From assembly GCA_902384795.1 (NCBI GenBank), contig CABMDC010000001.1, positions 7,375 to 71,374 of the forward strand: a DNA stretch of 64,000 nucleotides, in the 5' to 3' direction. The DNA is from Candidatus Gugararchaeum adminiculabundum (GTDB lineage: Archaea > Micrarchaeota > Micrarchaeia > Burarchaeales > Gugararchaeaceae). The position numbers were made by a program, and so were the translations under genes. This document shows, one piece after another, positions 10,217-64,000 of the stretch. Positions within the stretch are counted from its first letter, which is position 1. Every line of letters begins with the position of its first letter. The notes beneath the pieces were generated by a model. The model was given only the letters and a program-made list of their open reading frames with translations, had not been told where the DNA came from and made no database searches.

Positions 10217-10219
10217 TAC

Positions 10220-12483: not shown

Positions 12484-12494
12484 TTTACACTCCC

Positions 12495-12860: not shown

Positions 12861-12955
12861 GGGGTACTATATAAGAAATTAGATATATAAGCATTCCGAT
12901 ATATCAGAAAATAGACATATAAACGTTTTTAACCCTCCGCGGGCATAACCTCCCA

Positions 12956-13285: not shown

Positions 13286-13350
13286 CCCTGCCTGGCTCTT
13301 AGTTAATTATTTAAACAACCCCTGCAAATTCTATCTTCAGGTGTATACCT

Positions 13351-13542: not shown

Positions 13543-13573
13543 AGTAAAACCAGTCTCTCTCATTCTTGCTCTT

Positions 13574-14095
13574 CTACTCCTGTACTGTCATCCTTTCATA
13601 AAATTCCTTAGCCTTAGTCCTGACTTTCTCATTCGATTCAACCAGCACCATCCCCTCATTGGGTTGGCCGTAGATTATCAGATCGCCATCGCTGGAGAAA
13701 ATAATCGCAATCAGCGCTGCCAAATCCTCCTCGCCCTCGATTTCAATTTTCCCCTTCCTATTTCTAATCGCCTTTTTCACAGCGCTTTCAGTCTCATCGG
13801 TAATGGTTCCTGCCGGATTCCGCACGCGCACAATCTCCCCGCTGCCAGCGCCCGCATATTCGAGTATCACTTTTGTAATTTCGGGCGAAGCAGGCATTCT
13901 CCTGATCACATTGTCAAAGACCACGATGTCCGGGGTCTCTCCTGCGCGTATGAGCAATGCAGAGCAATGGTCGCCCACTGAAATCAGCAGCCCCTTTCTC
14001 TTTTCAGCCCTAGCCATGGCCTCCTCTTCGGTCGCCAATTTGCCGAACGGCTTGGCAAGCTCGTGCCTTAGTCCCAGCGTGAGTGTTCGCTTCAT
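13574..14095 (-). CDS. DUF359-like protein, putative GTP-dependent dephospho-CoA kinase
   Basis: About 175 aa with VGD..S..L...G..PDIVVFD and NPAGTIT motifs resembling the archaeal DUF359 family. The start is taken at an internal Met to avoid overlap with argG; the track ORF extends to 14134. Confidence 0.45.
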   Translation of the reverse strand: MKRTLTLGLRHELAKPFGKLATEEEAMARAEKRKGLLISVGDHCSALLIRAGETPDIVVFDNVIRRMPASPEITKVILEYAGAGSGEIVRVRNPAGTITDETESAVKKAIRNRKGKIEIEGEEDLAALIAIIFSSDGDLIIYGQPNEGMVLVESNEKVRTKAKEFYERMTVQE

Positions 14096-14108
14096 CAGTC
14101 CGCTCCCC

Positions 14109-31900: not shown

Positions 31901-34579
31901 AAATTCGACCATCCCGGCACGGGTTCCAACAACTGGTCGATTGCAATCGGCGGAATCGATCTTGCGCAGGCTACATCCATGGATCTTTCCGAGGCTTTCA
32001 ACGCAACCAATGAGAGCGGCCACATCTATGTCGGCATGGACAACAACAAGTGGCTCGAGCTGGCGCAGACGCTCGGCCCGGAAAACATAACCATAACAAT
32101 TCCGGAAGGCAGCAATGGGCTCATAAAATGCCAGACCGACAACATGAGCAATTGCGCCGATGTCACCGGAAACGCGACAAAGGTTGCCGGAGGAGATGGC
32201 TACAACTACACCACCTGGGAAATACCCATAGGATTAGGCTTCTCGGTTTACGGGGCGAACTCATCAGATGTTGATGCGCCTTATTGGGAATCGCTTACAG
32301 TCTCCCCGGGCAATGTAATCAACTACTCCACTGGCCAGACGATCAACCTAAGCATAAAATGGACAGACGAGTCATCTGACCTGGATGCCGTACTAATAGA
32401 GTTCAACGGAACGAACTACACCATGAATGGGGGAGGAAGCGGAACGTACTACAGCTACACGAACGCAACGCTTGCCGCAGGCAACTACACCTACGAGTTC
32501 TTTGTGAACGACACCCAGGGCAATATGAACAACACGGACGAGTTTGCCCTGATTATAACAAAGAACACAAGCAGCTGCTCAGTTTCAACCGCAAGTTCCA
32601 CGCTCACCTACCCCAACCCTGTTCTCGTCACTGCATCTTGCAGTGATCCGACTGCCAAGCTTTACCGGAATGCGACAGTTCAGTCCAACATGACCTACCT
32701 ATTGCTCGGGGCTGGCGACTACGTTCTTGTGGTAAACACCACTGACAGGACCAACTTCACCATCGCAACGGCTTCGGCCTATGTTAATGTGAGCAAAGGA
32801 ATTCCAACTCTCTACCAAAACAGTTCTGCTGGCTGGAGCATAGCATACACTACGGCAACTACCCTGAGTGCAGGCGGATGCCCTGGCACTGGCGCCGCCG
32901 CCATCACCTGCAACCTGACCCTAAACGACACTAACATGGGAGTGAGCAGCTTGCTCATAAACATTACAAATGCAACAGGAGTATACGCCATCGGGGTCAC
33001 TTCCTCTGGCAATGAGAACTGGTCCGCAACCACCAGCACGCCAACCGATTTGACTATAACCAAGGCAACAATGCCGCTGTATCTCTATATAGACGGTTAC
33101 CAGCTGAACAAGGCAATAAACATCAGCACCAATTCCACCATCACCGGCTCAAAGCCCTATGACGAAGGGATTCTCGACCTTTACATAAACGGAACAGTGG
33201 CAGCTACGCCCGGAGCATCCCTCTCCAACAACTCCAATTACACTTCCGCTGGCACCTACAACCTAACCCTGGTCTACAACGCAACGGAGAATTTCACTGC
33301 CTCCTCAGCAACGCGCTATCTCACAGTATACGACTTCACTCCAGCCGCCGGGCAGGTTATAGTGACCAGTGAAACGCCAGAAGTCACTGTGGATTCCAGC
33401 ACCACGGAAGTGATAGTTACCGACACCTCTTCACTGGAGGACGTGACCATACCCTCAACCATTACCTCGACAACGGAAGTTTCGCTGGTCTACTCGTTTG
33501 TTTCCGAAACAAACGGGGCGGATACGGATGTGACCGTGGGAACAGATTTCAATGTAAGCCGCAGTACCTCAACTGTCAACTATACCCTAGAAATACCCGC
33601 AAACACCACCATCTCCGGAACCGGCTGGGACGGGGTGTTGCTCCTGCCCACGGTTAAGGCGGTCACCACCGTGACCATAAGTGCGCCAAGCGGCTACACG
33701 CAAACGACTTCGCAAGTCATTGAAATAGGCTCCACCTCCGTGCCCCTGACCTTTGACAAGGGGGTGAGAATAGTAATGTCCGGCCAGGCCAATAAGAGCG
33801 TTGGCTACACCAGCGCAGGCAGCAGCACCTTTACCGAGATAACCGCAAACTGCTCTGTAGACACGCAGGAAAATGCGGATGAGAATTTGAGCATAGGCGG
33901 AGTATCCGCGTGCAAGATCAATTCAGGCTCTGATTTGGTTGTATGGACCAAGCACTTTACAAAATTCGCCACCTACACTCTGTCGGCCTCAACTCCGCAC
34001 ACCACGCCCACTCCGCCAACTACCTATTCCAACACCGGCGGTTCGAGCCTGGGATACACTTACCCGCCTGTTGTTACGCCTCCGCTAGTTGTTACTACGC
34101 CTCCGCCCGAGGCGCCTCCGGAGCAGCCTCCAGCCCAGCCTCCGGCAGTGCAGCCCCCGGCGAACGTTCCGCCAGCAGCGCCCTCGACTTCCACTGTTGC
34201 GCAACAGGAAATAACAAATGCTGAAACGCAAATAGCAGCCGCCCTGAAAAAGGGTAATGATATCTCCGTTGCAAACACGAAATTAGCATCGGCAAAAGCG
34301 GCGTTTGCAAACAAGGACTATCTGCAAGCAAAGGAGCTCGCGCAGGAAGCGGCGCAGCTTGCCTTGAATTCCAAGTTCGCGGCCCCGCCGAAAACCACGC
34401 CCCCGGCTGCAAACATCAGCGGGAACGCATCAGCAACACCGGTCGCGCCTGAAAGCAGCGGCCTGAGTTTCACTGACATGCTCGTAATCGGCGCAGTCGT
34501 CCTGGTAGCAATACTGGCAGCTGTCTGGGCGCTCTTCCTGCGGAAACAGCCGGAGGCCCAGGTGCCGCCTCAAAACTAG
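28985..34579 (+). CDS. giant surface protein (1864 aa): Cys-rich N-terminal region, FN3/Ig-like domains, very dense N-glycosylation sequons, Pro-rich stalk, helical segment, C-terminal TM anchor
   Basis: Signal peptide; an FN3-like segment (VFLHWVTNEPSNGTISLY...TTYYYKLTSCDRAGN); C-terminus PPVVTPPLVVTTPPPEAPPEQPPAQPP...DYLQAKELAQEAAQLALNSKF...AVVLVAILAAVWALFLRKQ. Confidence 0.8.
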   Translation: MNTGRSQWGLVNFRHGSVNPGLLVLVCVFMLLSVSAVSAVTWENFKVFNKGSPQGMPYASNGPGCSMGTMGVNPQPGTNCPGNNQVYDLGAVWVDMDDTYVAWMIMAPNLTNAQWCNPAASLGNPFTSPPGVGIGIEIDVDNNISTGCNANNTGAQNCFPGSEYQVWFYGDNTTAFMKYNASLASCSSGGSCFSVNNSITVSKNMSCGPFPSIVMLAVNRSALVGLKGTNFEANSFATGAGPVEHMGGYGQEKMMMGGSQDPMMMGQTPCMGFTTNAACTNVSMSYKCTWNSNFNKCEPNFALGGGMNCSDFCGMCNSTVTCQNGGRGKCQIVNAPPSPRPPDMRVWSDSGDKVCVENMQTFQMGTGGSSGSCDTDCKFCASSSTCSNSRVPNSMGGGAGCQWVTDPVFGGSWCDLATFSTNSLRCSAASPDRCLNQTACQGAALTWSDAITGNSTNCTNIGGSVSGSHCSIIQCYTPGQEICYDGIDNNNNSLIDCAESSCQQDKFCGGDINMLTDATVVARGGADLTRGQAMQFQMFKDMDPSPPVMLYGIASTPSVAGHLDITGFDIKDMGNSLAFGIKVRNYTSIECSGGYVGTGSYYYLLDTDKNSSTGCIADIAGTNYTGFEYKLIYNISMNSSGGIVEVRTAERCMGGQFFVQPIKLAGAPTPPPEMNMGSQKMSCVFGVALVAVDKVDIGNSLSIRIMAATSDNTTTLTTANKTILGPNNGGMYYTPGTIDFKPQDCQSNPTACGTAFSMIGGGKFMPFEDCMKPGDEDMNSLSDCADPACQFAPFCAGRSGSFNSTTDTSAPTVPTARADTFKDFVFLHWVTNEPSNGTISLYESCSDATPLNYFVDMPPSEFDRYKPWHDFGIRNQSTDFNGATVVLDSNTTYYYKLTSCDRAGNCAVSACLNFTTKAGSASSAVQFQFDFTPPADPLVNGTTMKIWNGTAYQNITAGQLTNQSSYLQNATLKFDHPGTGSNNWSIAIGGIDLAQATSMDLSEAFNATNESGHIYVGMDNNKWLELAQTLGPENITITIPEGSNGLIKCQTDNMSNCADVTGNATKVAGGDGYNYTTWEIPIGLGFSVYGANSSDVDAPYWESLTVSPGNVINYSTGQTINLSIKWTDESSDLDAVLIEFNGTNYTMNGGGSGTYYSYTNATLAAGNYTYEFFVNDTQGNMNNTDEFALIITKNTSSCSVSTASSTLTYPNPVLVTASCSDPTAKLYRNATVQSNMTYLLLGAGDYVLVVNTTDRTNFTIATASAYVNVSKGIPTLYQNSSAGWSIAYTTATTLSAGGCPGTGAAAITCNLTLNDTNMGVSSLLINITNATGVYAIGVTSSGNENWSATTSTPTDLTITKATMPLYLYIDGYQLNKAINISTNSTITGSKPYDEGILDLYINGTVAATPGASLSNNSNYTSAGTYNLTLVYNATENFTASSATRYLTVYDFTPAAGQVIVTSETPEVTVDSSTTEVIVTDTSSLEDVTIPSTITSTTEVSLVYSFVSETNGADTDVTVGTDFNVSRSTSTVNYTLEIPANTTISGTGWDGVLLLPTVKAVTTVTISAPSGYTQTTSQVIEIGSTSVPLTFDKGVRIVMSGQANKSVGYTSAGSSTFTEITANCSVDTQENADENLSIGGVSACKINSGSDLVVWTKHFTKFATYTLSASTPHTTPTPPTTYSNTGGSSLGYTYPPVVTPPLVVTTPPPEAPPEQPPAQPPAVQPPANVPPAAPSTSTVAQQEITNAETQIAAALKKGNDISVANTKLASAKAAFANKDYLQAKELAQEAAQLALNSKFAAPPKTTPPAANISGNASATPVAPESSGLSFTDMLVIGAVVLVAILAAVWALFLRKQPEAQVPPQN
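34060..34579 (+). other. C-terminal Pro-rich stalk + Ala/Gln-rich helical segment + TM anchor module (copy 2)
   Basis: Paralogous to 22496-22993. Confidence 0.6.
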
Positions 34580-46066: not shown

Positions 46067-46816
46067 ATGGGAAAACTTGAAGTGAAAAATTTGTATGTTT
46101 CCGTCGAAGGAAAGGAAATACTGAAAGGAGTGAACCTTTCGCTCCAGCAGGGCGAAGTGCATGCGCTCATGGGCCCGAACGGCTCTGGCAAAAGCACGCT
46201 TAGCTATGCGCTCATGGGCCATCCAAAATACAAAATCACCCAGGGCGACATTTTGCTGAATGGCGAAAGCATAGCAAAGCTCTCTCCGGAAAAGCGCGCC
46301 CAGAAGGGTTTATTCCTCGCATTCCAATACCCGACCGAAGTTCAGGGAATCAGCCTAAACAGGTTCCTGCTGAATGCGAACAAGTCCCTTGGAAAAATCA
46401 GCGACAGCGAAAAGGGAAATCCGACCATAAAGGAATTTCTTGCAAACACCAAATCCAGCGCCAAGGATCTTTCCATGGACGAATCATTCCTCCAGCGCTA
46501 CCTGAACGTTGGCTTTTCAGGGGGCGAGAAAAAGCTCTCGGAAATCCTGCAGATGTCAGTGCTCAAGCCCAAATTCGCATTGCTTGATGAGATCGATTCA
46601 GGCCTTGATGTGGACTCGCTCAAGCTGGTTGGCGCGGCAATCAACAGGATGCGCGGAAAGGATTTCGGAGCCCTGGTGATAACCCATTACGCGCGCATCC
46701 TCCAGCATGTGAAGCCCGACAAGGTGCACATTTTCATAGATGGAAAAATCGCCCAGTCAGGCGGCCCTGAGCTGGCGCAGAAGATTGAGCAAAAGGGCTA
46801 TGAGTTTGTGAAATGA
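46067..46816 (+). CDS. sufC: Fe-S cluster assembly ATPase SufC
   Basis: Walker A GPNGSGKST and the SufC-specific pattern; 249 aa. Confidence 0.9.
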   Translation: MGKLEVKNLYVSVEGKEILKGVNLSLQQGEVHALMGPNGSGKSTLSYALMGHPKYKITQGDILLNGESIAKLSPEKRAQKGLFLAFQYPTEVQGISLNRFLLNANKSLGKISDSEKGNPTIKEFLANTKSSAKDLSMDESFLQRYLNVGFSGGEKKLSEILQMSVLKPKFALLDEIDSGLDVDSLKLVGAAINRMRGKDFGALVITHYARILQHVKPDKVHIFIDGKIAQSGGPELAQKIEQKGYEFVK

Positions 46817-46832
46817 GCAGATGTGAAAAGAT

Positions 46833-48236
46833 ATGGCGGGAATTTCCAGCATAAATGCAGATTACAAAAAGAGGTACGGCTTCAGGGATACTGTAAAGCC
46901 TGTTTTCAGGACTGGCAAGGGACTAAGCAGGGAACTCATCAAGGAAATTTCAGCGATGAAAAACGAGCCCAAATGGATGCGCGAATTCCGCCTCAACTCC
47001 TATGAAATTTTCCTAAAGAAGAATCCGCCCAGCTGGGGCCCTGACCTTTCCCAAGCGAATTTCGAGCACATCACTTACTACTTAAAATCCAGCGACAGGC
47101 CTGAACGGAAATGGGAAGATGTCCCAGAAGGCATTAAGCGCACCTTTGACCGGCTAGGGGTGCCTGAAGCAGAAAAGAAATTCCTTGGAGGAGTTGGCGC
47201 ACAATACGAGAGCGAAACCGTCTACCACCACCTCAAAGAGAGTTTGGAAAAGCAGGGAATAATTTTCTGCAGCACTGACCAGGCGCTCCAGGAGCACGAG
47301 GAAATTTTCCGCGAATGGTTTGGCAAAATCGTTCCTCCCAGTGACAACAAATTCGCAGCCTTGAACAGCGCGGTCTGGAGCGGAGGCTCGTTCATTTACG
47401 TTCCAAAGGGAGTTGAAGTGAAACTTCCACTGCAAGCATATTTCCGCATAAATGAAAGAGCTATGGGGCAATTCGAGCGTACGCTAATCATAGTTGACGA
47501 GGGCGCAAAGGTCCATTACATCGAGGGATGCACAGCGCCCACTTACTCCAGCGATTCGCTCCATGCGGCAGTGGTTGAAATAATTGCAAAAAAGAATTCC
47601 CAGGTGCAATATACAACAATCCAAAACTGGTCCAACAATGTCTACAATCTAGTGACCAAGCGCTCGCACGCTTACGAAAACGCGCGCGTCTACTGGCTGG
47701 ATGGCAACATCGGAAGCAAAGCCACCATGAAATACCCCTCGGTTTATCTGATGGGTGCAGGCGCAAAAGCAGACCTTCTCAGCATAGCATTTGCGAACAA
47801 GGGACAGCACCAGGATGCAGGAGGAAAAGTTTTTCATCTCGCGCCAAATACGAGTTCACGCATAGTTTCCAAATCCATAAGCAAGGGAGGCGGAAGAACC
47901 AGCTATCGCGGGCTAGCGCTGGTGAAGAAAGGCGCAAAGAATTCCACGGTCAGCGTGAAATGTGATGCACTGATGCTTGACAAATTCTCCAGAAGCGACA
48001 CCTATCCCTCAATGAAAATTGATGAGAATGATGCAACAGTTTCCCATGAAGCCAGCGTTGGCAAACTATCCGATGATCAGGTTTTCTATTTGCGCTCCAG
48101 GGGACTGAGCGAAAGCGATGCGCGCTCCATGATAGTGCTCGGGTTCATAGAGGATTTTGTCAAGGAGCTTCCGCTAGAATACGCGGTTGAGCTGAACCGG
48201 CTCGTAAAACTAGAAATGGAAGGGGCAGTGGGCTAA
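46833..48236 (+). CDS. sufB: Fe-S cluster assembly protein SufB
   Basis: 467 aa with SufB C-terminal beta-helix motifs. Confidence 0.9.
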
Positions 48237-48251
48237 ACTAAGAGTGAAAAA

Positions 48252-49055
48252 ATGGCAAAGGAAATAAAAATTGCAGAAAATGAAAAGCGCGAAATAGATT
48301 TCTCCGGCAAAAGCGGGGATTTCGCAATCCAGCTGGCGCAGGGAGCGCAAGCAACAATTCTGGATTTGGCGCAAGGCAACTCGCGCAACTTAAGGCAAAA
48401 AATCATTCTGGGCAAAAACAGCAGGCTTACGATGGTTTCAATTCAAAACCAGGGGGCAGATTCGGACTCAAAAACAGAGAGAAAAATAGCGTGCACAGAG
48501 AATTCAGAGGTGCATTTTTTCTCAGCGAATTTAGGCGGCAAAATTTCAGCAGAAGTCCGTGAAATTCATCTTCAGGGAAAGGGCGCCAAATTATTTGACA
48601 ATGAAATTTTCTTTGGCACCATGAACCAACATTTCCAGAACAACACTGCCGTTTTCCACGAAGGCGCAAACACTTTTTCGCGCATCACAGTCAAGGGATT
48701 GCTGGGTGGAGTTTCTTCCGCCGACTACCTGGGTTTGGTAAAGATTGAAAAGAGCGCGCTGAATTCCGACACCTTCCTGGCGCAGCACACGCTCCTATTG
48801 GACACCGGGGCAAAGGCAGAGATGAACCCGAATTTGGAAATCGAGAACAGCGAGATTAAGGCAGGACACTCGGCCTCAGCTTCCAAAATCAGCGAGGATG
48901 ATTTGTTCTATTTGCAATCGCGAGGAATTCCAAAAACCAAGGCAGCGACTCTTCTGGCTTCAGGCTTCCTGGCCCAGGTGATTGAGAAGTTCCCAAAATT
49001 CTCCTCGGAGATCGAATCATTCATGCAAAGAAAATGGGGTGCGAAAAATGTTTGA
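48252..49055 (+). CDS. sufD: Fe-S cluster assembly protein SufD (short form)
   Basis: 267 aa with the SufBD beta-helix domain; positioned between sufB and sufS. Confidence 0.7.
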   Translation: MAKEIKIAENEKREIDFSGKSGDFAIQLAQGAQATILDLAQGNSRNLRQKIILGKNSRLTMVSIQNQGADSDSKTERKIACTENSEVHFFSANLGGKISAEVREIHLQGKGAKLFDNEIFFGTMNQHFQNNTAVFHEGANTFSRITVKGLLGGVSSADYLGLVKIEKSALNSDTFLAQHTLLLDTGAKAEMNPNLEIENSEIKAGHSASASKISEDDLFYLQSRGIPKTKAATLLASGFLAQVIEKFPKFSSEIESFMQRKWGAKNV

Positions 49056-50277
49056 TGCAAAAAAAATCAGAAAAGATTTCCCGGCACTGCAGAAAAAGGT
49101 GCATGGCAAGCCCCTGGCATTCCTGGACAGCGCAGCAAGTTCCCAGCGCCCGACCCAGGTGCTTGATGCAATGCGCGCCTATTTCGAGGAATACAACGCC
49201 AACGTTCACCGCGGGATTTACGAATACAGCGAAATGGCAACTCAGAAATACGAAGGGGCCAGGCGCAAGATTGCCAAGTTCATCAATTCACCCAGCGAAA
49301 AGGAAATAATTTTCACCAAGAACTGCACCGAGGCAATCAACCTGGTTTCCAATTCCTGGGGTCGCTCCAACATTCACAAGGGCGACACAATCCTCCTTTC
49401 GCAAATGGAGCACCACAGCAATTTAGTCCCCTGGCAAATGCTTGCAAAGGAAAAATCCGCGCGCCTGGAATTCATTCCCCTGGGCGATGATTTCAAGCTA
49501 GACTTACATGAGTACGAAAAGCTGCTGCACCGCCATTCCCCAAAAATAGTCTCATTCACCGGAGTAAGCAATGTGCTCGGAACAATCACCCCTGCAAAGC
49601 AGATTGTGAAAATGGCTCACGACTCCGGAGCAGTTGCAATGGTTGATGGCGCACAATCAGTCCCCCACTTGCCCACTGATGTGCAGCAGCTGGGCGCGGA
49701 TTTCCTAGCATTTTCAGGGCATAAAATGCTGGGCCCAACGGGCATCGGAGTTCTCCATGGAAAGGCGGAAATTCTCAATTCCATGCCCCCGTTCCTAGGC
49801 GGAGGCGACATGATCAAAAACGTCGAGTTCCGCGAAGCAACCTATGCGGACATCCCTTACAAATTCGAGGCAGGTACGCCTCCCATAGCCGAAGTGATCG
49901 GCCTGGGCGCAGCAGTTGACTATCTGCATAAATTGGGAATGCAGCATGTGCGCGAGCATGAGAAAAAGCTGGTGAGATACGCGCTTGAGAAATTCGACGG
50001 GCTAAGCGGCATCACGCTTTATGGCACGCGCGACCTCAGTTCCCGCGGTGGAGTTTTTTCCTTCAATCTAAAAGGAATTCACCCCCATGACCTTGCGAGC
50101 ATACTGGACCAGGAGGGAGTCGCAATTCGCGCAGGGCATTTGTGCGCCCAGCCCCTGGTGCAAAAACTGGGTGCAGTTGCCACAGCGCGCGCGAGTTTTT
50201 ACGTTTACACCTTGGAAGAAGAGATCGACCAGCTGGCGCTGGGATTTCAGAAGGCCCAAAAAGCCTTTGGAGTATAA
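49048..50277 (+). CDS. sufS: cysteine desulfurase SufS (class II aminotransferase)
   Basis: PLP Lys motif SGHKMLGPTGIG, catalytic Cys loop RAGHLCAQP; start taken at MFDAKKIRKDF. Confidence 0.9.
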   Translation: MFDAKKIRKDFPALQKKVHGKPLAFLDSAASSQRPTQVLDAMRAYFEEYNANVHRGIYEYSEMATQKYEGARRKIAKFINSPSEKEIIFTKNCTEAINLVSNSWGRSNIHKGDTILLSQMEHHSNLVPWQMLAKEKSARLEFIPLGDDFKLDLHEYEKLLHRHSPKIVSFTGVSNVLGTITPAKQIVKMAHDSGAVAMVDGAQSVPHLPTDVQQLGADFLAFSGHKMLGPTGIGVLHGKAEILNSMPPFLGGGDMIKNVEFREATYADIPYKFEAGTPPIAEVIGLGAAVDYLHKLGMQHVREHEKKLVRYALEKFDGLSGITLYGTRDLSSRGGVFSFNLKGIHPHDLASILDQEGVAIRAGHLCAQPLVQKLGAVATARASFYVYTLEEEIDQLALGFQKAQKAFGV

Positions 50278-50694
50278 TTGATGTCCATGAGTTTTGATTT
50301 GTACCGCGAAATAATCCTCGACCATTACAAAAATCCTAGGAATAAGGGCACGCTTAAGGCGCCTGATGCCAAGTGGCGCGAGAACAATCCGCTCTGCGGA
50401 GATGTGCTGGAAATGCAGTTGAAAATTTCCAAGGACAAAAAGCTGGAAGACATAAAATTTTCCGGAGATGGGTGCGCAATCTCGCTCTCCAGCGCCAGCA
50501 TCCTGACTGAAATGGTGAAAGGCAAACCGCTGGACGAAATTCTGAAAATCGACAAAAAGAAACTGCTCGGAGAGCTGGGCATAGACCCTGGCCCGAGCAG
50601 GATAAAGTGCGCCCTGCTTTCGCTCAAGGTTTTAAAGATGGCCGTCTATTCCTACCTGGGAAAGGAAATAGACAGGGAAACAAAAGACCTATGA
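50278..50694 (+). CDS. sufU: SufU/IscU-like sulfur-acceptor scaffold (NifU N-terminal domain)
   Basis: NPLCGD, SGDGCAIS and IKCALL motifs. Confidence 0.8.
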   Translation: MMSMSFDLYREIILDHYKNPRNKGTLKAPDAKWRENNPLCGDVLEMQLKISKDKKLEDIKFSGDGCAISLSSASILTEMVKGKPLDEILKIDKKKLLGELGIDPGPSRIKCALLSLKVLKMAVYSYLGKEIDRETKDL

Positions 50695-52986: not shown

Positions 52987-54723
52987 TCAGGGCCCGCTCG
53001 TGTTCAGTCCCCAGCCAAGAGGCGAATCCGACTGCCCCATGAGCACAGCCATCCTCTTGATTGTTTGCCTCGCATAGGGCTCTGGCTCCAGCTTCGGGTT
53101 CTGGGTCTGCAGCTCCATCAGCAGTTCCCCGACTTTTTCTTCCCCCATAAGCTTCACTGCGAGATGATACACGTGCTCCAGCCCTCCCACGGGGGAAATC
53201 AGCTCGCTGTCAGGGAAGTTCGGCTCAAATCCGTTCGTTAGCTTTTCCTGGACCCAACCAGTATTGGAATGAATTTCAGCAAAAACCTTCTTGATCCCGG
53301 CCCTTCTAGCAATCCTTCTTGTTTCCCTCATCATCTCCCCGAATGCTTCTTCCTTCCTGGAAAGCAGCCGCTGTGAAGCGAAGTCCGTGTTCTTCAGGTT
53401 GTCTCTCATCTCCGGAATCGTCTCTATCGCATCCACGCTCAGGAACGGCCTATCCGCAGTGCTCATGGGGCGCAGATGCGCTTTCATAACAAATTCTCCG
53501 TCAATGTATACGTTCAATATGGAGTACATCGGATCAAGCAGCCAGGTGTAAACCGTCCAATGGCTGTTCAACGGCTCCTTCCCTTCCTCCCGCTTGGCCG
53601 GGTTCTTTGCAGTGGAATCGCCGGTCTTGTCCCCCAGCGTCAGGTATGTCTCGTCACGCGGGGCAAGCGCGCATTCTGCCCCCTTTCCTCTTATGTACTG
53701 CAGCCCTTCCATCTCCCTGTTGTTAGGCCTTATGTTTTTCCCCAGGAGCGCGGCTATCTCGTCTGCGTACATGGCAAACACGCTTGGATTCCTGAGTGCC
53801 TCAGCAGCTGGCGTTCCGGTTATTTTTTCCAGCCCTTCCTGGATCCGGACCGAACCGATTTTTTTCTCAATAACCTCCCCAATCTCCAGAACTTTCCTGT
53901 AAATCAGGCTTTCCCTTTTCCTCTGCGCGTCGTCCCCTTCAAGAAGGTGGCCCAGCTTCTTCTGCTGCCTGCTCAGCTCCTTCTTAAGCGCATTAATGTC
54001 CTTTTCGCCCTTTCCATTCATCCCAAGCATGCTGGTAATTTTTCCTATATTCCCCCTTACCTTCCCTACGGCTTCCTCATCTATTTTCACTGGTTCGTCC
54101 TTTATCGCATAAAGCTTTCCAAGCCTGTCCTTCAGAGTTTTTTCCAGCGCATCACAGAGCTCAATGCGTTTTTCCCAAGTCAATTCCGCGCTTAGTTCCC
54201 TCTGCTTCACTCCGGCTTCCTTCAGTATGCTGCCAAGCTTGGAATCAGTGTTCTCGCCAAGCAGCTTCCCTTCCCTTATGCATGCTATCGCCTCATAAAC
54301 CACGTTTTTTGAAAAGGAAACCGTGCCCTCGGTCATCAGCCTTGCAAATACGCTTTCCACTTTTTCCGGGTCATTGAGGTTCATCAGTGCTTTCCAACCG
54401 ACCCCGTCCCACTGGGTTACGTCATTTCCGCTCCCTGAAGCCACGAAATTTTCATAAACAGCCGCCTTTAGGTTCTCCCCTGCCTTTAGCCTTTTCTTGA
54501 TTTCAGCGGCAAGGGCTGTGTTGAACGGTATGTTCTTCTTCAGCGCCTTTGCGTCTATCCCCGGAACCTGGTCAAATCTCCTTTCTTCCAGATTGAATTT
54601 GAAAATCCGGCATTCTTCAAACGGATTTTTGCTTATGACCGCAAGGGGAATCTCCACAACCGAATTCTTTCCACCCGCCGCACCCCGAGCATTTCCATTG
54701 TTAATCTGCTTCATCTCGACCAC
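52987..54723 (-). CDS. large conserved hypothetical protein (578 aa, soluble)
   Basis: Long uninterrupted ORF with a coding-like composition and no recognised motif. Confidence 0.5.
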   Translation of the reverse strand: MVEMKQINNGNARGAAGGKNSVVEIPLAVISKNPFEECRIFKFNLEERRFDQVPGIDAKALKKNIPFNTALAAEIKKRLKAGENLKAAVYENFVASGSGNDVTQWDGVGWKALMNLNDPEKVESVFARLMTEGTVSFSKNVVYEAIACIREGKLLGENTDSKLGSILKEAGVKQRELSAELTWEKRIELCDALEKTLKDRLGKLYAIKDEPVKIDEEAVGKVRGNIGKITSMLGMNGKGEKDINALKKELSRQQKKLGHLLEGDDAQRKRESLIYRKVLEIGEVIEKKIGSVRIQEGLEKITGTPAAEALRNPSVFAMYADEIAALLGKNIRPNNREMEGLQYIRGKGAECALAPRDETYLTLGDKTGDSTAKNPAKREEGKEPLNSHWTVYTWLLDPMYSILNVYIDGEFVMKAHLRPMSTADRPFLSVDAIETIPEMRDNLKNTDFASQRLLSRKEEAFGEMMRETRRIARRAGIKKVFAEIHSNTGWVQEKLTNGFEPNFPDSELISPVGGLEHVYHLAVKLMGEEKVGELLMELQTQNPKLEPEPYARQTIKRMAVLMGQSDSPLGWGLNTSGP

Positions 54724-57403: not shown

Positions 57404-58123
57404 ATGGATTGCAAAAAAGAGATTCTACTTTTAAGGGCTGATTTGCAAAAGCACGTTAATGCGAAGTACAAGCAGGGTGCAACAAACTATTTCAAGGAGC
57501 AAATTCGGCCGCATGGCGTTCGCCTGCCAACTGTTCATAAAATTGCAGCAGAGCATTTCAAGCGCCTAAGGAAACAAGGTTGGAGTAAAGCAGACTTCTT
57601 CGCACTCGCGGAAGAGCTCCAAAAGACCGGCTGGTTCGAGGAAACAACCGCGGCCTATTCCATGCTTGAGCATCTCGAGCGCGAATTCATTGAGGATGAT
57701 TTTGCCACATTTGCTTTCTGGCTTGAAAAATACGTTTCCAACTGGGCGCACTGCGACCATCTTACCAATCATCATGTTGGCTATTTGCTCGAAAAATATC
57801 CACAATTAGTAAAGCGCCTTTACCCTCACGCAAAATCCAAGAACAGGTGGATGAAAAGAAGCGCCTGCACTTCGCTCATCCTTCCAGCGCGCCACGGCCT
57901 TTTCCTTTCCGACTGCCTGAAAATTGCGCAAATTCTCCATCAGGACAGGGATGATTTGGTTCTCAAGGGAGCAGGCTGGATGCTGCGCGAGGCAGGCAAA
58001 AGGCACGAGGATGCTGTTTATAATTTCCTGCTTCAAATCAGGAAGAAAGCAGGCCGTGTGCTATTAAGGTACGCGATTGAAAAAATGCCCAAGCAAAGAA
58101 AAGAGGCGGTTCTCTATGGTTAG
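57404..58123 (+). CDS. DNA alkylation repair protein (AlkD-like HEAT-repeat family)
   Basis: 239-aa all-helical protein with the AlkC/AlkD pattern. Confidence 0.7.
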   Translation: MDCKKEILLLRADLQKHVNAKYKQGATNYFKEQIRPHGVRLPTVHKIAAEHFKRLRKQGWSKADFFALAEELQKTGWFEETTAAYSMLEHLEREFIEDDFATFAFWLEKYVSNWAHCDHLTNHHVGYLLEKYPQLVKRLYPHAKSKNRWMKRSACTSLILPARHGLFLSDCLKIAQILHQDRDDLVLKGAGWMLREAGKRHEDAVYNFLLQIRKKAGRVLLRYAIEKMPKQRKEAVLYG

Positions 58124-58901
58124 CATTTTAGAAGCAATCTTCCTGGCAGTAATCCAGGGAATAACCGAATGGCTGCCAATTTCCAGCTCAGGCCATCTCG
58201 CCCTGGCGCAATATTATTTTCACATCCAGGCATCAGTTCTGTTCGACATCATCCTGCATCTCGGAACCCTGCTCGCAGTGGTTGTTTACTTTAGGCAAAA
58301 AATTCTTGACATAATCCAGTCTGCGCTCAGGCTCGATTTCAAAAGCGAGAACGGCTCCATCATCCCGTTCGCAATTCTCGCCCTGATTCCAACGGCAATA
58401 ATCGGCTTTGCTTTCAAGGACTTCTTCGAGTCCATGTTCCAGAAGCCCGCGCTCATCGGTGCAGGCCTCGTCCTCACCGGATTAGTTCTCTATTCCACCA
58501 AATACCTCGGCAAAAAAGCAAATTCTCCAGTTGGGTTAAAGCAGGCGCTCGCAATGGGAATAGCGCAGGGAATAGCGGTTGCGCCAGGAATTTCCAGAAG
58601 CGGCTCAACCATCAGCGCAGGAATAGCCGCCCAGGGGCAGAGGGAAAAGGTCGCAGCATTCTCCTTCCTGATTGCAGTTCCGGCAGTGATTGGCGCGGCC
58701 ATTTTCGAGCTAAAAGGAAAGGCAATAGAAGCAATTGGCATTGAAGCAATAGCAATCGGCCTGCTAGTTTCCTTTGCAGTTGGCTACGCGTCCATTCACG
58801 TTCTGTTCAAGCTGCTCAAGGGCGACAAATTCCACTGGTTTGCCTACTACTGCTGGCTTGCGGGATTAACCGCAATCGCAGCCAGTTTCCTGGTAAAATA
58901 A
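58116..58901 (+). CDS. uppP: undecaprenyl-diphosphatase
   Basis: N-terminal ITEWLPISSSGHL motif, the PGISRSG motif and 8 TM helices; start taken at MVSILEAIF. Confidence 0.85.
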   Translation: MVSILEAIFLAVIQGITEWLPISSSGHLALAQYYFHIQASVLFDIILHLGTLLAVVVYFRQKILDIIQSALRLDFKSENGSIIPFAILALIPTAIIGFAFKDFFESMFQKPALIGAGLVLTGLVLYSTKYLGKKANSPVGLKQALAMGIAQGIAVAPGISRSGSTISAGIAAQGQREKVAAFSFLIAVPAVIGAAIFELKGKAIEAIGIEAIAIGLLVSFAVGYASIHVLFKLLKGDKFHWFAYYCWLAGLTAIAASFLVK

Positions 58902-58905
58902 AAAA

Positions 58906-60885
58906 CTAACCCCTCTTTCGTTTTGCTTTTTTAGCCAACCTCACCTTTGGCCATTTTGTTTCTTTTGGTTTTTCCTCTTCGCCAATTGAAACTATTCGCG
59001 TCTCATCAATCGTCTCTTGCTTCTTCTCCCCCATCTCGGCCAATTTTTCCATCCCATCTTTTCTTTCAAAAAACCCCGAATCAGGCGCAGCAGAAGTCAG
59101 GTCAATCCCCGCAGGCACAACCGTAACTGCAGGCGCGCCAGGAATTTTAGCAGGCGTTTCTTCCACAGGCACGGACACTTCCACTGCTTGCCTAGCTGCC
59201 TTTGGGTCCATCCACTTGTCCACATCCACCGTCCTCACCCGCATGGGCAGCATGTACTTTTTCCCGTCGTACAATCTCACTACGCATTCCCTCTGGTTCA
59301 GCCTTACGAACATCTCCCTTTTCGCTTCCTCCAATTCCGTGGCAGTCCTGCTCTTTTTGAAATATTCCTCCATCTTGATTTCCATTATGGAGCTCACCAG
59401 CACCGCGTCCCCCCTGTTGGTTTTGAAGGAAACCACGTTCCTTGTGTTCGAAACAATCGCATCCACAATTTCCTTTCTCAATTGCCCAAGGTACTGCATT
59501 GACAAATACAAATACAGGTTGAACTTCCTGGTTTCAGCCAGGATGTCCTTTGCCACCAATGTCTCCACTCTCGGAAACTCATCAATCACCAAAATGGTCG
59601 GGGTTTTGAATTTCTCGGTAATCGCAAGGATGTACATCTGGGAAATTATCGCCCCTGCCAGGAAGTTGATCATCTTTTTCCCGAAGAAATTCGGGTCAAA
59701 GGACACTATGGTCACGTTGTTCTTTTCGCTGATTTCCAGCAGGGATTCTTTTTTCAAATCCTTTCCCAAATACAATTCATACTCCCCGATGAAGTTCAGG
59801 ATTGGCAAAACCGCATCATTGAAATGATGGATGTAAATGTCCTGGTATTCCTGGTCAAAGAACCTTCTCGCTTCATCCACCTTGCTCTTGCTGGTTGCTT
59901 CCATCCTGTATGCGGAATCAGTAAGCAGCATGTTTATGTCCTTCAAGGTCAGCCTATCAATCGAAGAAAGCAAGTATGTGGAATAAAACAAAATTCTCTC
60001 GGAATACTTGTTGTTCTCCCCAATGGTCGAGGAAATCAGCTGGGTAATCAGCTGGGTCATGAGCGGGCTTTTCTCGGCCCCGATATCCAGCGGCTCAACA
60101 TAACTTCCCTTGAAATCAATGGATTTGTACTCTGGCATTTTTTTGGAGAATTCCCCGTGCGGGTCAAGCACCACAATGCGCACCTTTTCCCCGTACCTTT
60201 TTTCCAGCGCCTTGACCATCATCCAAAGCGCTTTGGTTTTCCCAGACCCGCTCTCGCCTACTATGAGCGAGTGCTGGAGCGGGTCATAGCTGTCCATTCC
60301 GATTTTCGTATCCCCGTCCTGGAACAGCGGGGCGCTGGAGCTGACGGCGATGCTCTTTGGGATGGGTTCAAGCACCTCCAGATAGACCGAAGGATGCTTC
60401 TCCAAACTGATCTCAAAAAATTTCTCGGGGTTTGAGATTAGCGCGTAGCGCAGCCGGCCCGCTGAGTCAACAGCGCGGACAGTGCCTACGAATTTCCCGA
60501 GCACGCGCCTTACAAAAAACGAAAGCTCCCTGATGTCCTCCTTGATCATGAAATTGAGCAAATTGTCCCCGCTCGCAGCGTAAATTTTCGGTGGCGGGAA
60601 CGCCCTTGATTTCACCCTTTCCACGTACTTCACTTCTCCCAATTTGAACGGGAACAGCAAATTGGAAAGCCCGCGCATGGTCCTGCTTTCCTTCACATAA
60701 AACCGCAAGGTGCTCCCATCCTTCTGGATCAGTATGCTGGACGGGATTTTGGAGTAAAAGTACGAAGGGTCTATCACTCCCAGAATCGGAACGCTCCTGC
60801 TGGTCAAATTTTTGAGCAGCATCCGCACATCATCCGGGCCGACTTTTTCAGAATAGAAAAGCAGCTCGCGCATTGGTTCAGCCAT
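58906..60885 (-). CDS. HerA/FtsK/VirB4-superfamily (DUF87-like) P-loop ATPase with a Lys/Glu-rich C-terminal tail
   Basis: Walker A LIVGESGSGKT, RIVVLDPHGEF (DPHGEY-type motif of HerA/DUF87), Walker B TPTILVIDEFPR; N-terminal domain of about 220 aa; 8-nt overlap with the upstream gene. Confidence 0.75.
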   Translation of the reverse strand: MAEPMRELLFYSEKVGPDDVRMLLKNLTSRSVPILGVIDPSYFYSKIPSSILIQKDGSTLRFYVKESRTMRGLSNLLFPFKLGEVKYVERVKSRAFPPPKIYAASGDNLLNFMIKEDIRELSFFVRRVLGKFVGTVRAVDSAGRLRYALISNPEKFFEISLEKHPSVYLEVLEPIPKSIAVSSSAPLFQDGDTKIGMDSYDPLQHSLIVGESGSGKTKALWMMVKALEKRYGEKVRIVVLDPHGEFSKKMPEYKSIDFKGSYVEPLDIGAEKSPLMTQLITQLISSTIGENNKYSERILFYSTYLLSSIDRLTLKDINMLLTDSAYRMEATSKSKVDEARRFFDQEYQDIYIHHFNDAVLPILNFIGEYELYLGKDLKKESLLEISEKNNVTIVSFDPNFFGKKMINFLAGAIISQMYILAITEKFKTPTILVIDEFPRVETLVAKDILAETRKFNLYLYLSMQYLGQLRKEIVDAIVSNTRNVVSFKTNRGDAVLVSSIMEIKMEEYFKKSRTATELEEAKREMFVRLNQRECVVRLYDGKKYMLPMRVRTVDVDKWMDPKAARQAVEVSVPVEETPAKIPGAPAVTVVPAGIDLTSAAPDSGFFERKDGMEKLAEMGEKKQETIDETRIVSIGEEEKPKETKWPKVRLAKKAKRKRG

Positions 60886-61720
60886 TTCTTTTCACCATCC
60901 CAATTTTTGCTTTTCCCCCGCCTCCGCTCTTCTTCGCCCCGGCGCTCCCCCCCGTTCCGAGTTCGTAAACATCCCTACATGTCCCCTCCTCTTCCAGGTC
61001 GCGCGCCAGCTTCTCCTGCAGCATCTTCCTGAATTTTGCATAGCTCTCTGGCCCGACTTCCACATTTCCAATAGCGTATTTCAGCCCCTTGGCATTGAAG
61101 CAGAACATGCAGTTCTCGCAGTTCTCCACATTGTGGCAGTAATAGCAGTCCGATGAGGAGCCAGAATCGCTGGTTTCAAAGCACCGCGTCAGCCTGAACG
61201 AGTTGTACACATTGATGCAGAACGCGCATTCAACCGCCCTGCTCGCCCCGAATATGTACTCCGTGTCCTTGAGCCAGAAGCAATAGCCCGCGTATTTTGA
61301 AAACCAGCAATGGGTCCCTCGGTAGCAGTATTGGGTCGGTCCGTAGCACACGCACTCCTCGCTTCCTATGTTCTCGTACAAAACCGTTTCCGTGGTGGTT
61401 GTGCAAATTTTCGAAAGCGCCTTTTCCGCATTCTTCAGTGTCAGCGATCCGGATTCCTCTGGCGAAAGTTTCCTGTCAATCTTCAGCGATTCTTCGTAGG
61501 TGACCAGGTTCGGCAGCATTCCCTGGTAGAACTGCAGGCCAATTGCGTAAACTTTTTTGTCGCTCATCTGCGACTTATTCCTGGTAAAGCCGGTCACATG
61601 CCTCATCAGCCAGCGCTCATACTTCTCCGTTTCGCCTTTGAGCGGCCTGCCCAGCAGCACTGCGCAAGTGCTTTTGAATGCCTTCTCAATCTCATTCATT
61701 CCAAACACCCCGGTGCACAA
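60878..61720 (-). CDS. cysteine-ladder repeat protein, paralog B
   Basis: 280 aa; C-terminal half built from 12-15-residue units (CYYCHNVENCEN, CMFCFNAKGLKY, CAFCINVYNSFRLTR); N-terminal TC.VLLG...YE..L.R.V shared with paralog A; translationally coupled to the flanking genes. Confidence 0.6.
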   Translation of the reverse strand: MCTGVFGMNEIEKAFKSTCAVLLGRPLKGETEKYERWLMRHVTGFTRNKSQMSDKKVYAIGLQFYQGMLPNLVTYEESLKIDRKLSPEESGSLTLKNAEKALSKICTTTTETVLYENIGSEECVCYGPTQYCYRGTHCWFSKYAGYCFWLKDTEYIFGASRAVECAFCINVYNSFRLTRCFETSDSGSSSDCYYCHNVENCENCMFCFNAKGLKYAIGNVEVGPESYAKFRKMLQEKLARDLEEEGTCRDVYELGTGGSAGAKKSGGGGKAKIGMVKRNG

Positions 61721-62519
61721 TCTCCGTTATGGAAGGAACGGTTTTTTTCGCGCGCATTGTCCCGGCAATCTCCTTCACCAGTTTGTCTTTCAGCGAAGCG
61801 AACTTGTCCTGGGGCAGCTCCAGGTTCCCGATGCACCTGAGTTTGGAGCGCAGGTTGAAAGAGAACAGGCAGTTGCTGCAGTTCTCCAAATTCACCGTGT
61901 AATAGCAGTCAGAGCAGAAATTCAGCGAGACCGTTTCGAAAAGCCTCGAGCACTTGAAACCACGGAAGCTTTTGAGCACGAACTTCGAGCTTCCGGAGTG
62001 GTATGTCCCAACAATGTTCTCCCCGAACCTAACCGAGCTGCAATGGGCGACATTCTTGCTCCCGATCACATCCTCAGAAAAATGGACATTGCTGGACGAG
62101 ATTATGTCCGTTGAGTTTGTAACTTCTGAAGAGTTTCCCAGCACTATGTTGCCCGCGTAGTAGAAATTCTCCTCCAGCGCACGCACCAGCGAATCAATAT
62201 CCTTTATCGAATTGATATCCAGCTTTTTTCCCTTCAGCATTTTCGCATAATCCGCTGCCTCATCCGCCAGAATGAATTTCGCATCCCCCGGGCAGTTGTC
62301 GCAGTAGGCCAGATCTTTTCCTGACAGGGCGGATTTGCCCGCAGCGCTCTGGCGCACATACCGTTTCAGAAGCTTTTCATAATCCCCCAGCGGGCCGAGT
62401 TCCTCCCCCAGCACCACCCTGCAGGTGTCCGTCCATATTTTCTCTGCTCCCATCCAAAAACCCCCTTTCCCACACATAACTTGCGCATCCTTCCTATTTA
62501 TCCTAAGGTAGTCCAGCAC
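61692..62519 (-). CDS. cysteine-ladder repeat protein, paralog A
   Basis: 275 aa; units CSDCYYTVNLEN, CSNCLFSFNLRS, AHCSSVRFGENIVG; 29-nt overlap with paralog B; GTG start within the inverted repeat at 62511-62524. Confidence 0.6.
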   Translation of the reverse strand: MLDYLRINRKDAQVMCGKGGFWMGAEKIWTDTCRVVLGEELGPLGDYEKLLKRYVRQSAAGKSALSGKDLAYCDNCPGDAKFILADEAADYAKMLKGKKLDINSIKDIDSLVRALEENFYYAGNIVLGNSSEVTNSTDIISSSNVHFSEDVIGSKNVAHCSSVRFGENIVGTYHSGSSKFVLKSFRGFKCSRLFETVSLNFCSDCYYTVNLENCSNCLFSFNLRSKLRCIGNLELPQDKFASLKDKLVKEIAGTMRAKKTVPSITEIVHRGVWNE

Positions 62520-62540
62520 TGGACTAAAAAGATAGGATTA
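62492..62540. promoter_or_regulatory. nested inverted repeats in the divergent intergenic region (outer atccta...taggat; inner gtccag-ca-ctggac at 62511-62524)
   Basis: Palindromic arms read directly from the sequence; the inner palindrome overlaps the paralog A start codon, and the region sits about 30 nt upstream of the TrmB-like gene. Confidence 0.45.
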
Positions 62541-62566
62541 AATACATCCGACGGCAAATTACCTCC

Positions 62567-64000
62567 GTGGCAGAGGAGTTTGACGAAATTGGAGGGCTTA
62601 CAAAGGGCGAGCGCAAAGTCTATTTAGCGCTGGCAGGGCTCGGTCCATCCACCGCTAATCCAGTGATTAAGCAGACCGGAATGCAGAAAAGTGCGGTCTA
62701 TTTCTGCCTTGAGCGGCTTGTTTCCAAAGGGCTCGCCAGCTATATCACGCGCAATAATCGCAGAGTTTTCGAAGCAGCGCCCTCCGCCAAATTGGGGGAA
62801 TTCATCGAACAGCGCAAGCGCAGGCTGGATGCGGAAAAAGCGGAAATGGACAGGGCAGTGAAATCCCTGATAGCAAACAGGGGCGAGGGCGGAAGAAAAG
62901 GCGCCAGGTTTTTCGAAGGCTGGAGCGGGCTTGAAATCGCGCTTGAGGACAGCTACTGCGACCTTGATCAAAAAGACGAGCTGCGCGTTTTCAGCGTGAC
63001 TGTCGCATCGAACCAGCTTGAAAGATTCCGGCGCCTGATAAAAAAATTCCATGACCGGAGGGCGGAGAAAAAAGTCCGGGCCCGCATGGTGATGAATGAA
63101 AGAATGCGCGAGACCCTGGGTAGGGACAGGGAAAACACCCCCTACACCGAGGTGCACTACGTGCCTCCGGAATACAGCACTCCTGCCACCATAAACGTGT
63201 ACAAGGACAAGGTGCTGATCATACTCCTAAGCGGTGAGAGCCCGACCACCTTCCTTGTTGAAGGGAAGGAAATCGCCGATTCTTTCCGGCAGTATTTCGA
63301 GCTGCTCTGGAGTGAGGAAACCCGCGTCTACCGCGGATTAAAGGGAATGGAAGCCCTGCTGGAGGACGTGCTCCAATACAAGGACGTTGTTTTCATAGGC
63401 GGGAGGGGCGACATCTCCCTGCGCATGCCCGATTACTTCTGGAAATCATTCGCGCCCCGCGCAGAAAAGAAAGGCCACAAATGGAAAATCCTCGGAATTC
63501 CCGAGATTGTCGAAACGCCGGTAATGAACGCGAAGTTCATCGAAGTGAGAACAATGTCCCACGCGGCGCTGGGCCCGATTGTCATATGGATTTTCGGCAA
63601 CAAGGTCGCCAATGTAATCTGGAAAAAAGACCCCATCGCGTTCGTGCTTGAGAACAAGGAAGTTGCCCAAAGATACAGGGATTATTTCACCACGCTCTGG
63701 GAAGATGAGACCCGCATCTACCGCGGCATTGGGGGCCTGCGCGCTCTCTGGGACAAATCGCTCCAGTACGACCAGGTGCGCAACATCGGGGGCAGGGGGC
63801 AGGCCGCAGTAAACGACCCTGACTATTTTTTCAAATCATTCGCCCCGCGCGCAGAAAAGAAAGGCTTCCGCTGGCGCATTCTCGGCCTTCCCGAGATCAT
63901 GAAAACTCCTATTGTAAAGGCGAAATTCGTGGAGATACGGCTCTTGCCCGAGTTGGCTATCGGCCCAACCGTGATACAAATTTCCGGTGACCGGGTTATC
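62567..64000 (+). CDS. TrmB-family transcriptional regulator with a tandemly duplicated C-terminal domain (3' end beyond the window)
   Basis: Manual translation from the GTG at 62567: N-terminal wHTH LTKGERKVYLALAGLGPSTANPVIKQTGMQKSAVYFCLERLVSKGLASYITRNNRRVFEA, then two homologous domains of about 120 aa (YRGLKGMEALL...FAPRAEKKGHKWKILGIPEI... and YRGIGGLRALW...FAPRAEKKGFRWRILGLPEI...). Open to the window end, so absent from the ORF track. Confidence 0.65.
   Translation, partial: MAEEFDEIGGLTKGERKVYLALAGLGPSTANPVIKQTGMQKSAVYFCLERLVSKGLASYITRNNRRVFEAAPSAKLGEFIEQRKRRLDAEKAEMDRAVKSLIANRGEGGRKGARFFEGWSGLEIALEDSYCDLDQKDELRVFSVTVASNQLERFRRLIKKFHDRRAEKKVRARMVMNERMRETLGRDRENTPYTEVHYVPPEYSTPATINVYKDKVLIILLSGESPTTFLVEGKEIADSFRQYFELLWSEETRVYRGLKGMEALLEDVLQYKDVVFIGGRGDISLRMPDYFWKSFAPRAEKKGHKWKILGIPEIVETPVMNAKFIEVRTMSHAALGPIVIWIFGNKVANVIWKKDPIAFVLENKEVAQRYRDYFTTLWEDETRIYRGIGGLRALWDKSLQYDQVRNIGGRGQAAVNDPDYFFKSFAPRAEKKGFRWRILGLPEIMKTPIVKAKFVEIRLLPELAIGPTVIQISGDRVI

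Follow-up and report, generated by a model that had tools for sequence, protein, structure and literature searches.

HerA is normally partnered with NurA, usually in an operon with Mre11 and Rad50, and other HerA systems join it to Sir2 or to DUF4297. In type VII secretion the FtsK-like ATPase, EccC, is a multi-domain, membrane-anchored protein and the substrates are helical-hairpin WXG100 or PE/PPE proteins. Here we describe a locus of Candidatus Gugararchaeum adminiculabundum, a DPANN archaeon of the class Micrarchaeia, that recalls such systems in part. It lies in a stretch of 64,000 nucleotides (the window, to which all coordinates refer unless another contig is named) and consists of three minus-strand genes: A and B, which encode paralogous proteins modelled as beta-solenoids, and C, which encodes a P-loop ATPase of the FtsK-HerA superfamily (Table 1). 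In minimal form, the locus represents a two-component module that is specific to Micrarchaeota-type DPANN archaea, and we found no described counterpart, by sequence, profile, fold or literature, for the A-B family or for the combination of one motor with many two-part solenoid units. From gene context we propose, at a probability of roughly 0.35, that a single soluble motor of the HerA/FtsK class works with the A-B units as its exchangeable partner modules.

The relation between A and B is best seen in other genomes. A profile search with A against 1.84 billion representatives returned 1328 clusters (269 with E <= 1e-30), and the top 150 of these 1328 cluster representatives are mostly proteins of about 525-540 amino acids (aa) that match the A profile twice. 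Where A and B genes are adjacent they are fused in frame in 98 of 174 pairs (56%), giving a protein of about 530 aa, and the structural model of such a fusion reached a predicted template modelling score of 0.86. Together A and B make up a single unit, a pseudo-dimer with two diverged halves, which in the window is made as two translationally coupled proteins and elsewhere as one protein. The two window proteins are indeed paralogs, as an earlier note made from the sequence alone had supposed (BLASTP, 27% identity, E 3e-21); both can be aligned over their whole length to 28 homologs of A and to the fusion proteins, and bear the family signature ..DCYY..N.EN....F.FN.......IGN. The start of B lies over the stop of A in an 8-nt overlap (ATGAATGA), a junction that split A-B pairs of other loci show more often than any other, and the start of C lies over the stop of B in a second overlap of 8 nt (ATGGCTGA). 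The earlier note had the same three minus-strand reading frames with overlaps of 29 and 8 nt, of which the second stands and the first does not, because the first possible TTG start had been taken where the ATG start gives 8 nt. ATG starts at 62453 (A) and 61699 (B) are favoured by conserved homolog N-termini and by Shine-Dalgarno-like G-rich motifs 6-7 nt upstream, over the GTG and TTG starts of a mechanical list of open reading frames (ORFs) that placed A at 61692-62519 and B at 60878-61720. The protein deposited for the source organism, uncharacterised, 253 aa long and 100% identical to A, agrees with the ATG at 62453, and the organism's deposited ATPase begins 4 residues after the start of the window ORF.

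By analogy, the unit may be likened to HsdS of type I restriction-modification, which is also a pseudo-dimer of homologous halves, fused or split, with a variable part and a conserved long helix in each half, and of which several copies can serve one motor enzyme. The likeness would be one of organisation, as there is no relation in sequence or fold, no adjacent methyltransferase or restriction subunit, and the isoelectric point of A-B is neutral.

A and B genes alternate in nearly all of 81 loci anchored on A, all of them from Micrarchaeota-type metagenome-assembled genomes (MAGs), and the units are often lined up head to tail, with 2 to about 10 per array. Several genomes carry an array together with dispersed solitary pairs, and one 629-kb contig has at least 11 units, the genome-wide counts being lower bounds drawn from the best 80 loci. 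Between genomes, pairs match as pairs: the best hits of an A and its B are an A and a B that again belong together. Identity is 58-88% between orthologous pairs of different genomes against 35-50% between paralogs within an array, from which we take the pairs to be units of long standing that co-evolve, rather than hypervariable genes. The A-B solenoid unit is a new Micrarchaeota family, recognised by its head, 12-residue solenoid and long helix in the order A then B. Its named sources are Micrarchaeota/Micrarchaeia (including Anstonellaceae and Bilamarchaeaceae), unclassified 'archaeon' or 'uncultured archaeon' entries and a few '(I)ainarchaeum sp.' MAGs, and every member is annotated as hypothetical. 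The best-scoring member, P0304, exceeds a two-half fusion at 822 aa and may hold three half-units.

Searches of reference collections gave A and B no known relatives. No Pfam family was matched by A, B or 54 further family members, and A and B had no NCBIfam, PADLOC or PHROG match, no sequence relative in the PDB even by profile search, and no structural match of their models in BFVD; the view that the pairing fits no described system is upheld by these results. Among 2.9 million viral contigs (IMG/VR) there were no relatives of A or C. A viral or proviral origin is rejected, with no match in IMG/VR or BFVD, PHROG matches for the P-loop alone, and one weak phage hit. The literature searched on Gugararchaeum and Micrarchaeota yielded no description of the family, and the Gugararchaeum genome paper does not mention it (PMC8561730).

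The case for a partnership between the A-B units and the ATPase comes from their neighbourhood. When loci were anchored on A, an ATPase gene stood at the edge of the array in 28 of 81; when they were anchored on the ATPase, 39 of 58 metagenome loci carried A-B, and every locus without it has a short flank or a distant homolog. Where at least 3 kb of flank is available on each side of an ATPase ortholog, which holds for 16 of them, an A-B unit lies within 2 kb every time. The two components stand convergently (C> <BA) in 25 loci, as C then AB in 12 and as AB then C, the order of the window, in 9, with units on both sides of C in a further 4 and a divergent layout in 2. The 'tight three-gene operon' of the earlier note is real in the window and is one of three arrangements, of which the convergent is the commonest. 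The 8-nt overlap of B and C is limited to the window and to its closest relatives, L085 and L088, the gaps of other co-directional loci being 11-216 nt. Most loci examined have a single ATPase ortholog. One contig has two: on Ga0209514_10000001 (1.37 Mb) the ATPase paralogs of L085 and L126, 63% and 51% identical to that of the window, each stand beside an A-B unit of their own. Adjacency that persists through such rearrangements argues for a functional link, and the frequent convergent orientation indicates that co-translation is not required for it.

Several observations weigh against the proposal that the units serve the motor. The commonest layout, being convergent, implies separate transcripts, and B-C coupling is confined to close relatives of the window. 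Many A-B pairs stand alone, with no ATPase gene less than 10 kb away, and window A is most similar to pairs of just this kind, some of which have TrmB- or AsnC-type neighbours. The pairs next to an ATPase form no dedicated subfamily; such a subfamily was looked for and not found, the best match of an ATPase-proximal pair being proximal in only 24 of 56 cases. The difference in variability between regions of the unit is modest, and adjacency within one phylum could in part be inherited synteny. Taken to their end, these points describe a different biology, in which the A-B proteins and the ATPase are independent, the former being individually regulated cytoplasmic solenoids with, for example, a structural, storage or ligand-binding role and their adjacency to the ATPase no more than inherited order. 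Many solitary pairs that are remote from ATPase genes and have separate regulators, the prevalence of the convergent arrangement and the grouping of window A with solitary pairs all speak for it. We consider such independence unlikely, however, given that 16 of 16 well-flanked orthologs are adjacent to a unit, that the adjacency holds through three arrangements and at about 50% ortholog identity, that the second ATPase paralog on the 1.37-Mb contig has its own unit, and that B and C are translationally coupled in three loci.

The ATPase itself belongs to a known superfamily, of which it forms a new branch specific to this lineage. Its first 200 aa are a conserved N-domain, the ATPase core spans about residues 200-558, and residues 559-659 form a Lys/Glu-rich tail that has a polybasic tip. 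The GESGSGKT, VVLDPHGEF and ILVIDEF motifs and the Lys/Glu-rich tail that had been read from the sequence are all present, and G210, S212, G213, G215, K216, D241, P242, H243, E245, D435 and E436 are invariant in 34 orthologs. Its earlier assignment to the DUF87/HerA-FtsK superfamily of P-loop proteins is confirmed by Pfam DUF87 (PF01935; 35.4 bits against a cut-off of 23.2); TrwB_AAD_bind also scores above its cut-off (33.3 against 20.5 bits) over residues 201-250 only, the Pfam matches covering mainly the P-loop region. Across residues 1-558 ortholog identity is 48-77%, and the N-domain has many invariant positions. Overall length varies from about 560 to 990 aa among orthologs, the tail after about residue 560 being disordered, acidic, variable in length and rich in Glu, Lys, Ala and Pro, again with a polybasic tip.

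C shares with the HerA systems (HerA-NurA, Sir2-HerA, DUF4297-HerA) a DUF87 P-loop, a Walker A plus D-x-H-G-E arrangement and a neighbouring gene for a non-ATPase partner, which could be placed on the ring. It would nevertheless be very surprising if it were simply the HerA of DNA end resection. A DUF87 score (helicase HerA central domain) above the gathering threshold and the alignment of the Walker A/DPHGE region to solved HerA chains are what such an identity would lead one to expect, but the similarity is short: a profile of the 34 orthologs matches the solved HerA chains at residues 205-259 only (about 55 residues, E 7.9e-5), with a weaker match to FtsK, and C falls far short of equivalog scores, at 13.2 bits against 970 for NCBIfam helicase_HerA (NF040819). 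The 10 window ORFs scanned with Pfam include no NurA, Mre11 or Rad50, and the statement that no NurA is present holds for these ten, most of the window having been read by the first 50 residues of each ORF. The conserved neighbour is instead the A-B unit, a beta-solenoid pseudo-dimer unrelated to NurA, Sir2 or DUF4297 and present in up to about 10 diverged versions per ATPase; we know of no HerA system with so many diverged partners.

The same family resemblance raises the question of anti-virus or anti-mobile-element defence of the HerA-plus-effector kind, in which A-B units would serve as sensors or effectors on an assembly platform formed by the ATPase. The best PADLOC matches of C are to mad8 (E 1.4e-9, residues 204-493) and to several HerA models (down to 3.1e-7, spanning about 50 residues only), there is a weak match to NCBIfam HerA_antiphage (NF042943), a diversified repertoire of binding modules would suit an immune logic, and an invariant acidic/basic set in A (E65, K84, D85 and D87) could be catalytic. 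We nevertheless consider defence doubtful. All scores lie far under the family cut-offs, that for HerA_antiphage being 17.8 bits against 800, and in the PADLOC scan of A, B and C neither A nor B matched any model, those for mad genes included. A MADS system would join its mad8-like ATPase to other mad genes, and an anti-phage HerA system would have Sir2, DUF4297 or another known effector next to it. Defence genes are usually patchy. The ATPase, by contrast, is highly conserved, at the identities given above, and sits in a stable chromosomal context by housekeeping genes, for example a recurrent PALP gene; the pairs are orthologous between genomes rather than hypervariable, and viral contigs lack both A and C.

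The closest relatives of the C core beyond its orthologs are soluble DUF87 ATPases resembling type IV coupling proteins (T4CPs), from archaeal conjugative plasmids and integrative elements, a kinship with which the TrwB_AAD_bind score accords. At 23-26% identity over about 300-380 residues, the nearest comprise Sulfolobus conjugative-plasmid ATPases, a stand-alone protein of a Sulfitobacter plasmid (E 7e-21) and proteins of locus L140. Two distant soluble T4CP-like relatives (24-26%) lie in L140, at 9932-11149 and 11622-14342 of that locus, by a serine recombinase and a MazF toxin and with no A-B unit, and a short soluble one lies in L082 (7052-8239, Sulfitobacter plasmid) near a recombinase and transposases. 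Unlike these plasmid ATPases in their recombinase, MazF and transposase contexts, window C is chromosomal and conserved across Micrarchaeota, and it has extra N- and C-terminal regions. Unlike a T4CP proper (VirD4/TrwB/TraD) it lacks an N-terminal transmembrane anchor. Among the clustered neighbours no type IV secretion or relaxase family recurs. Scores against specific equivalogs are low, at 30 bits for TraD (cut-off 521) and 40.6 bits for NCBIfam CedD (NF053655; cut-off 600, residues 192-259 only). No transmembrane-like segment was found in 120 orthologs, long-tailed ones included, and the maximum 19-residue hydropathy of window C, 1.68, falls within the ATPase core; a membrane-anchored translocase is rejected on these grounds.

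This bears on whether the A-B units might be cargo, that is, heterodimeric substrates or effectors that the ATPase passes to export or cell-to-cell transfer and that could serve interaction with a host. Bicistronic pairs of paralogs multiplied in tandem by an FtsK/HerA-class ATPase would be a natural analogue of type VII secretion, where EsxA/B and PE/PPE genes are likewise back-to-back pairs of distant paralogs, multiplied, by an FtsK-like ATPase; the coupling protein of a type IV secretion system and its effectors offer another formal parallel. The annotation and scoring of C as TrwB_AAD_bind, its Sulfolobus conjugative plasmid relatives, and the short conserved motif in which both halves end after the long helix (PSIxxIIGG in A, IYNIG in B) point the same way. 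As with defence, we doubt that this is the answer: the ATPase and its 120 orthologs have no transmembrane-like segment, C has a single P-loop domain, unlike EccC, no membrane-protein family recurs among the clustered neighbours, A and B have neither a signal peptide nor a hydrophobic segment, and their beta-solenoids are not helical hairpins.

In their predicted structures each half, A or B, has an alpha/beta head, a very narrow beta-solenoid of 12 residues per turn and a long C-terminal helix. In the AlphaFold2 model of A (mean predicted local distance difference test, pLDDT, 77.9) these would occupy about residues 1-100, about 100-212 and 215-236, and the alpha/beta heads of the models replace the purely alpha N-terminal domain that had been expected. 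Among the closest known systems we count the short-coil beta-solenoids, namely the Tenebrio and spruce budworm antifreeze proteins, the ryegrass ice recrystallisation inhibition protein and curli CsgA. A unit of about 12 residues, which the earlier note had described for both proteins, is borne out in A, where residue identity at a lag of 12 is 22.3% against 7.7 +/- 2.5% in shuffles, and is undetectable by identity in B (p ~0.17), where it is visible in the register of Cys alone: all 10 Cys of B residues 125-200 fall in one residue class modulo 3. The CxxC units are confined to the last 2-3 coils. Asn occupies unit positions 9 and 12 in A and 6, 9 and 12 in B, so that the positions 6 and 9 first given were roughly right.

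Conservation is uneven along the unit. The last coils of B are the most conserved segment of the family, with the lowest mean entropy of all regions (1.47 bits), and include an invariant His (CHN), and the corresponding signature segment of A has the highest pLDDT of the A model (90-95). The B head and central coils have the highest entropy, 2.3-2.6 bits. A has a motif of its own, INSIKDIDS, in which N81, K84, D85, D87 and S88 are invariant in 28 homologs, as is E65 alongside it, and which has no counterpart in the consensus of B halves. From this pattern of invariance INSIKDIDS with E65 in A, and the CHN His in B, may be functional sites. Isoelectric points are 8.0 for window A and 8.2 for window B, with family medians of 7.0 (A) and 6.6 (B); because these are near neutral, a DNA-mimic reading in the style of pentapeptide-repeat proteins is rejected.

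The Cys ladder had first been taken for a metal-binding or disulfide-ladder solenoid, a claim that has fared poorly. In 221 fusion proteins every Cys-rich solenoid column of each half lies on one period-3 register, with ladders 12 residues apart; columns are 26-88% Cys, none is invariant, and Ser, Ala, Val and Ile substitute freely. A shared register combined with free substitution is the pattern of small residues facing a core and not of a conserved metal site, and the ladder would seem to be mostly core packing in a four-sided 12-residue coil. That the C-terminal domains bind metal (Zn, Fe-S or Cu) or form disulfide ladders, with metal handling as the function, therefore strikes us as improbable, and more so than defence or cargo. 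In its favour are the 12-residue spacing of CxxC pairs within the last coils, the invariant His of the B half, and a suf-like Fe-S assembly cluster 8 kb away, with suf genes also adjoining A-B pairs in L005 and L018. Against these stand the replaceable Cys columns on their single register, as expected of residues that point to the core, the lack of an invariant Cys/His ligand set (one His is invariant), a zf-CXXC score of 14.1 bits, far under the Pfam threshold of 26.5, and suf adjacency in few of about 140 loci. The cluster in the window (46067-50694, plus strand; SufC/B/D/S/U, by N-terminal sequences only) is probably near by synteny rather than function. A SufBD-like or Fe-S role was also considered and set aside, having no profile or fold support and no match to Pfam SUFBD_core.

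Regulation of the locus, which the earlier note had thought probable, is plausible: of about 79 array starts, 32 have immediately upstream a gene for an HTH_10/BAT-like (co-directional), a double AsnC-type helix-turn-helix (HTH; divergent) or a TrmB-type (divergent) regulator. In the window the reported TrmB-type gene is there, in divergent orientation, and so are the inverted repeats, nested as TTTATCCTA ... TAGTCCAG ca CTGGACTA ... TAGGATTAA at 62497-62541. The AT-rich outer arms could be TATA boxes of both divergent genes, and the repeats a putative operator. The same TrmB family is found divergently upstream of A-B pairs elsewhere (8 loci). The window regulator is unusually long, has no Pfam match outside its HTH, and carries a C-terminal segment of about 140 aa twice (ETRVYRGLKGMEALLEDV...FAPRAEKKGHKWKILG and ETRIYRGIGGLRALWDKS...FAPRAEKKGFRWRILG).

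Table 1. Features of the A-B-C locus and its control region in the window.
Feature	Coordinates	Strand	Basis or remark
Gene A, first half-unit, 253 aa from ATG	61692..62453	-	ORF, homolog N-termini, Shine-Dalgarno-like motif
Gene B, second half-unit, paralog of A, 273 aa from ATG	60878..61699	-	
Gene C, FtsK-HerA-superfamily P-loop ATPase (DUF87 / TrwB_AAD_bind), 659 aa	58906..60885	-	
A-specific motif INSIKDIDS, residues 80-88	62190..62216	-	Alignment of A homologs
Family signature, last coils of A, residues 180-210: CSDCYYTVNLENCSNCLFSFNLRSKLRCIGN	61824..61916	-	
Last coils of B, residues 182-212: SSDCYYCHNVENCENCMFCFNAKGLKYAIGN	61064..61156	-	
Walker A GESGSGKT of C, residues 210-217	60235..60258	-	
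HerA-type motif VVLDPHGEF of C, residues 238-246	60148-60174	-	
Walker B region ILVIDEFPR of C, residues 431-439	59569..59595	-	
Divergent control region, 113 bp	62454..62566	.	
Divergent TrmB-type HTH regulator	62567..64000, runs off window	+	Pfam TrmB 1.1e-10; at least 478 aa visible

Elsewhere in the window, the ATPase gene meets a convergent gene for BacA/UppP (58077-58901; Pfam BacA 3.8e-72), the two ends being 4 nt apart (58901-58906), which leaves no space for separate terminators. A 578-aa ORF at 52987-54723 (minus strand) has no Pfam match at E <= 1e-5. ORFs of 1642 and 1864 aa at 18065-22993 and 28985-34579 (both plus strand) begin with hydrophobic, signal-like N-termini and are candidate giant surface proteins. 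By eye, the N-terminus of a 436-aa ORF at 23029-24339 (minus strand) resembles the large subunit of archaeal (form III) RuBisCO.

If the A-B units are indeed exchangeable partners of the motor, they would make up a diversified repertoire of specificity or adaptor subunits. They would dock on the one ATPase, presumably a hexameric ring, by way of their conserved parts, namely the head of A, the final coils of the solenoid and the helices, and the target of each unit would be set by its more variable B head and central coils. Dedicated regulators would select which units are made; in the window this would fall to the TrmB-type protein, through the palindromic sequence between the two divergent genes. 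The substrate of the motor would more likely be DNA than protein, because the motor is related to T4CPs, HerA and FtsK. In its fullest form the idea, which we regard as speculative and less likely than the partnership itself, is of a previously unknown modular machine: one motor and some 5 to more than 10 transcriptionally selectable, pseudo-dimeric solenoid specificity subunits, each of which would direct the motor to a different DNA or protein target, for example in exchange with, or exploitation of, a host cell. If true, this would be a new class of motor plus exchangeable adaptors, without counterpart in bacteria or other archaea.

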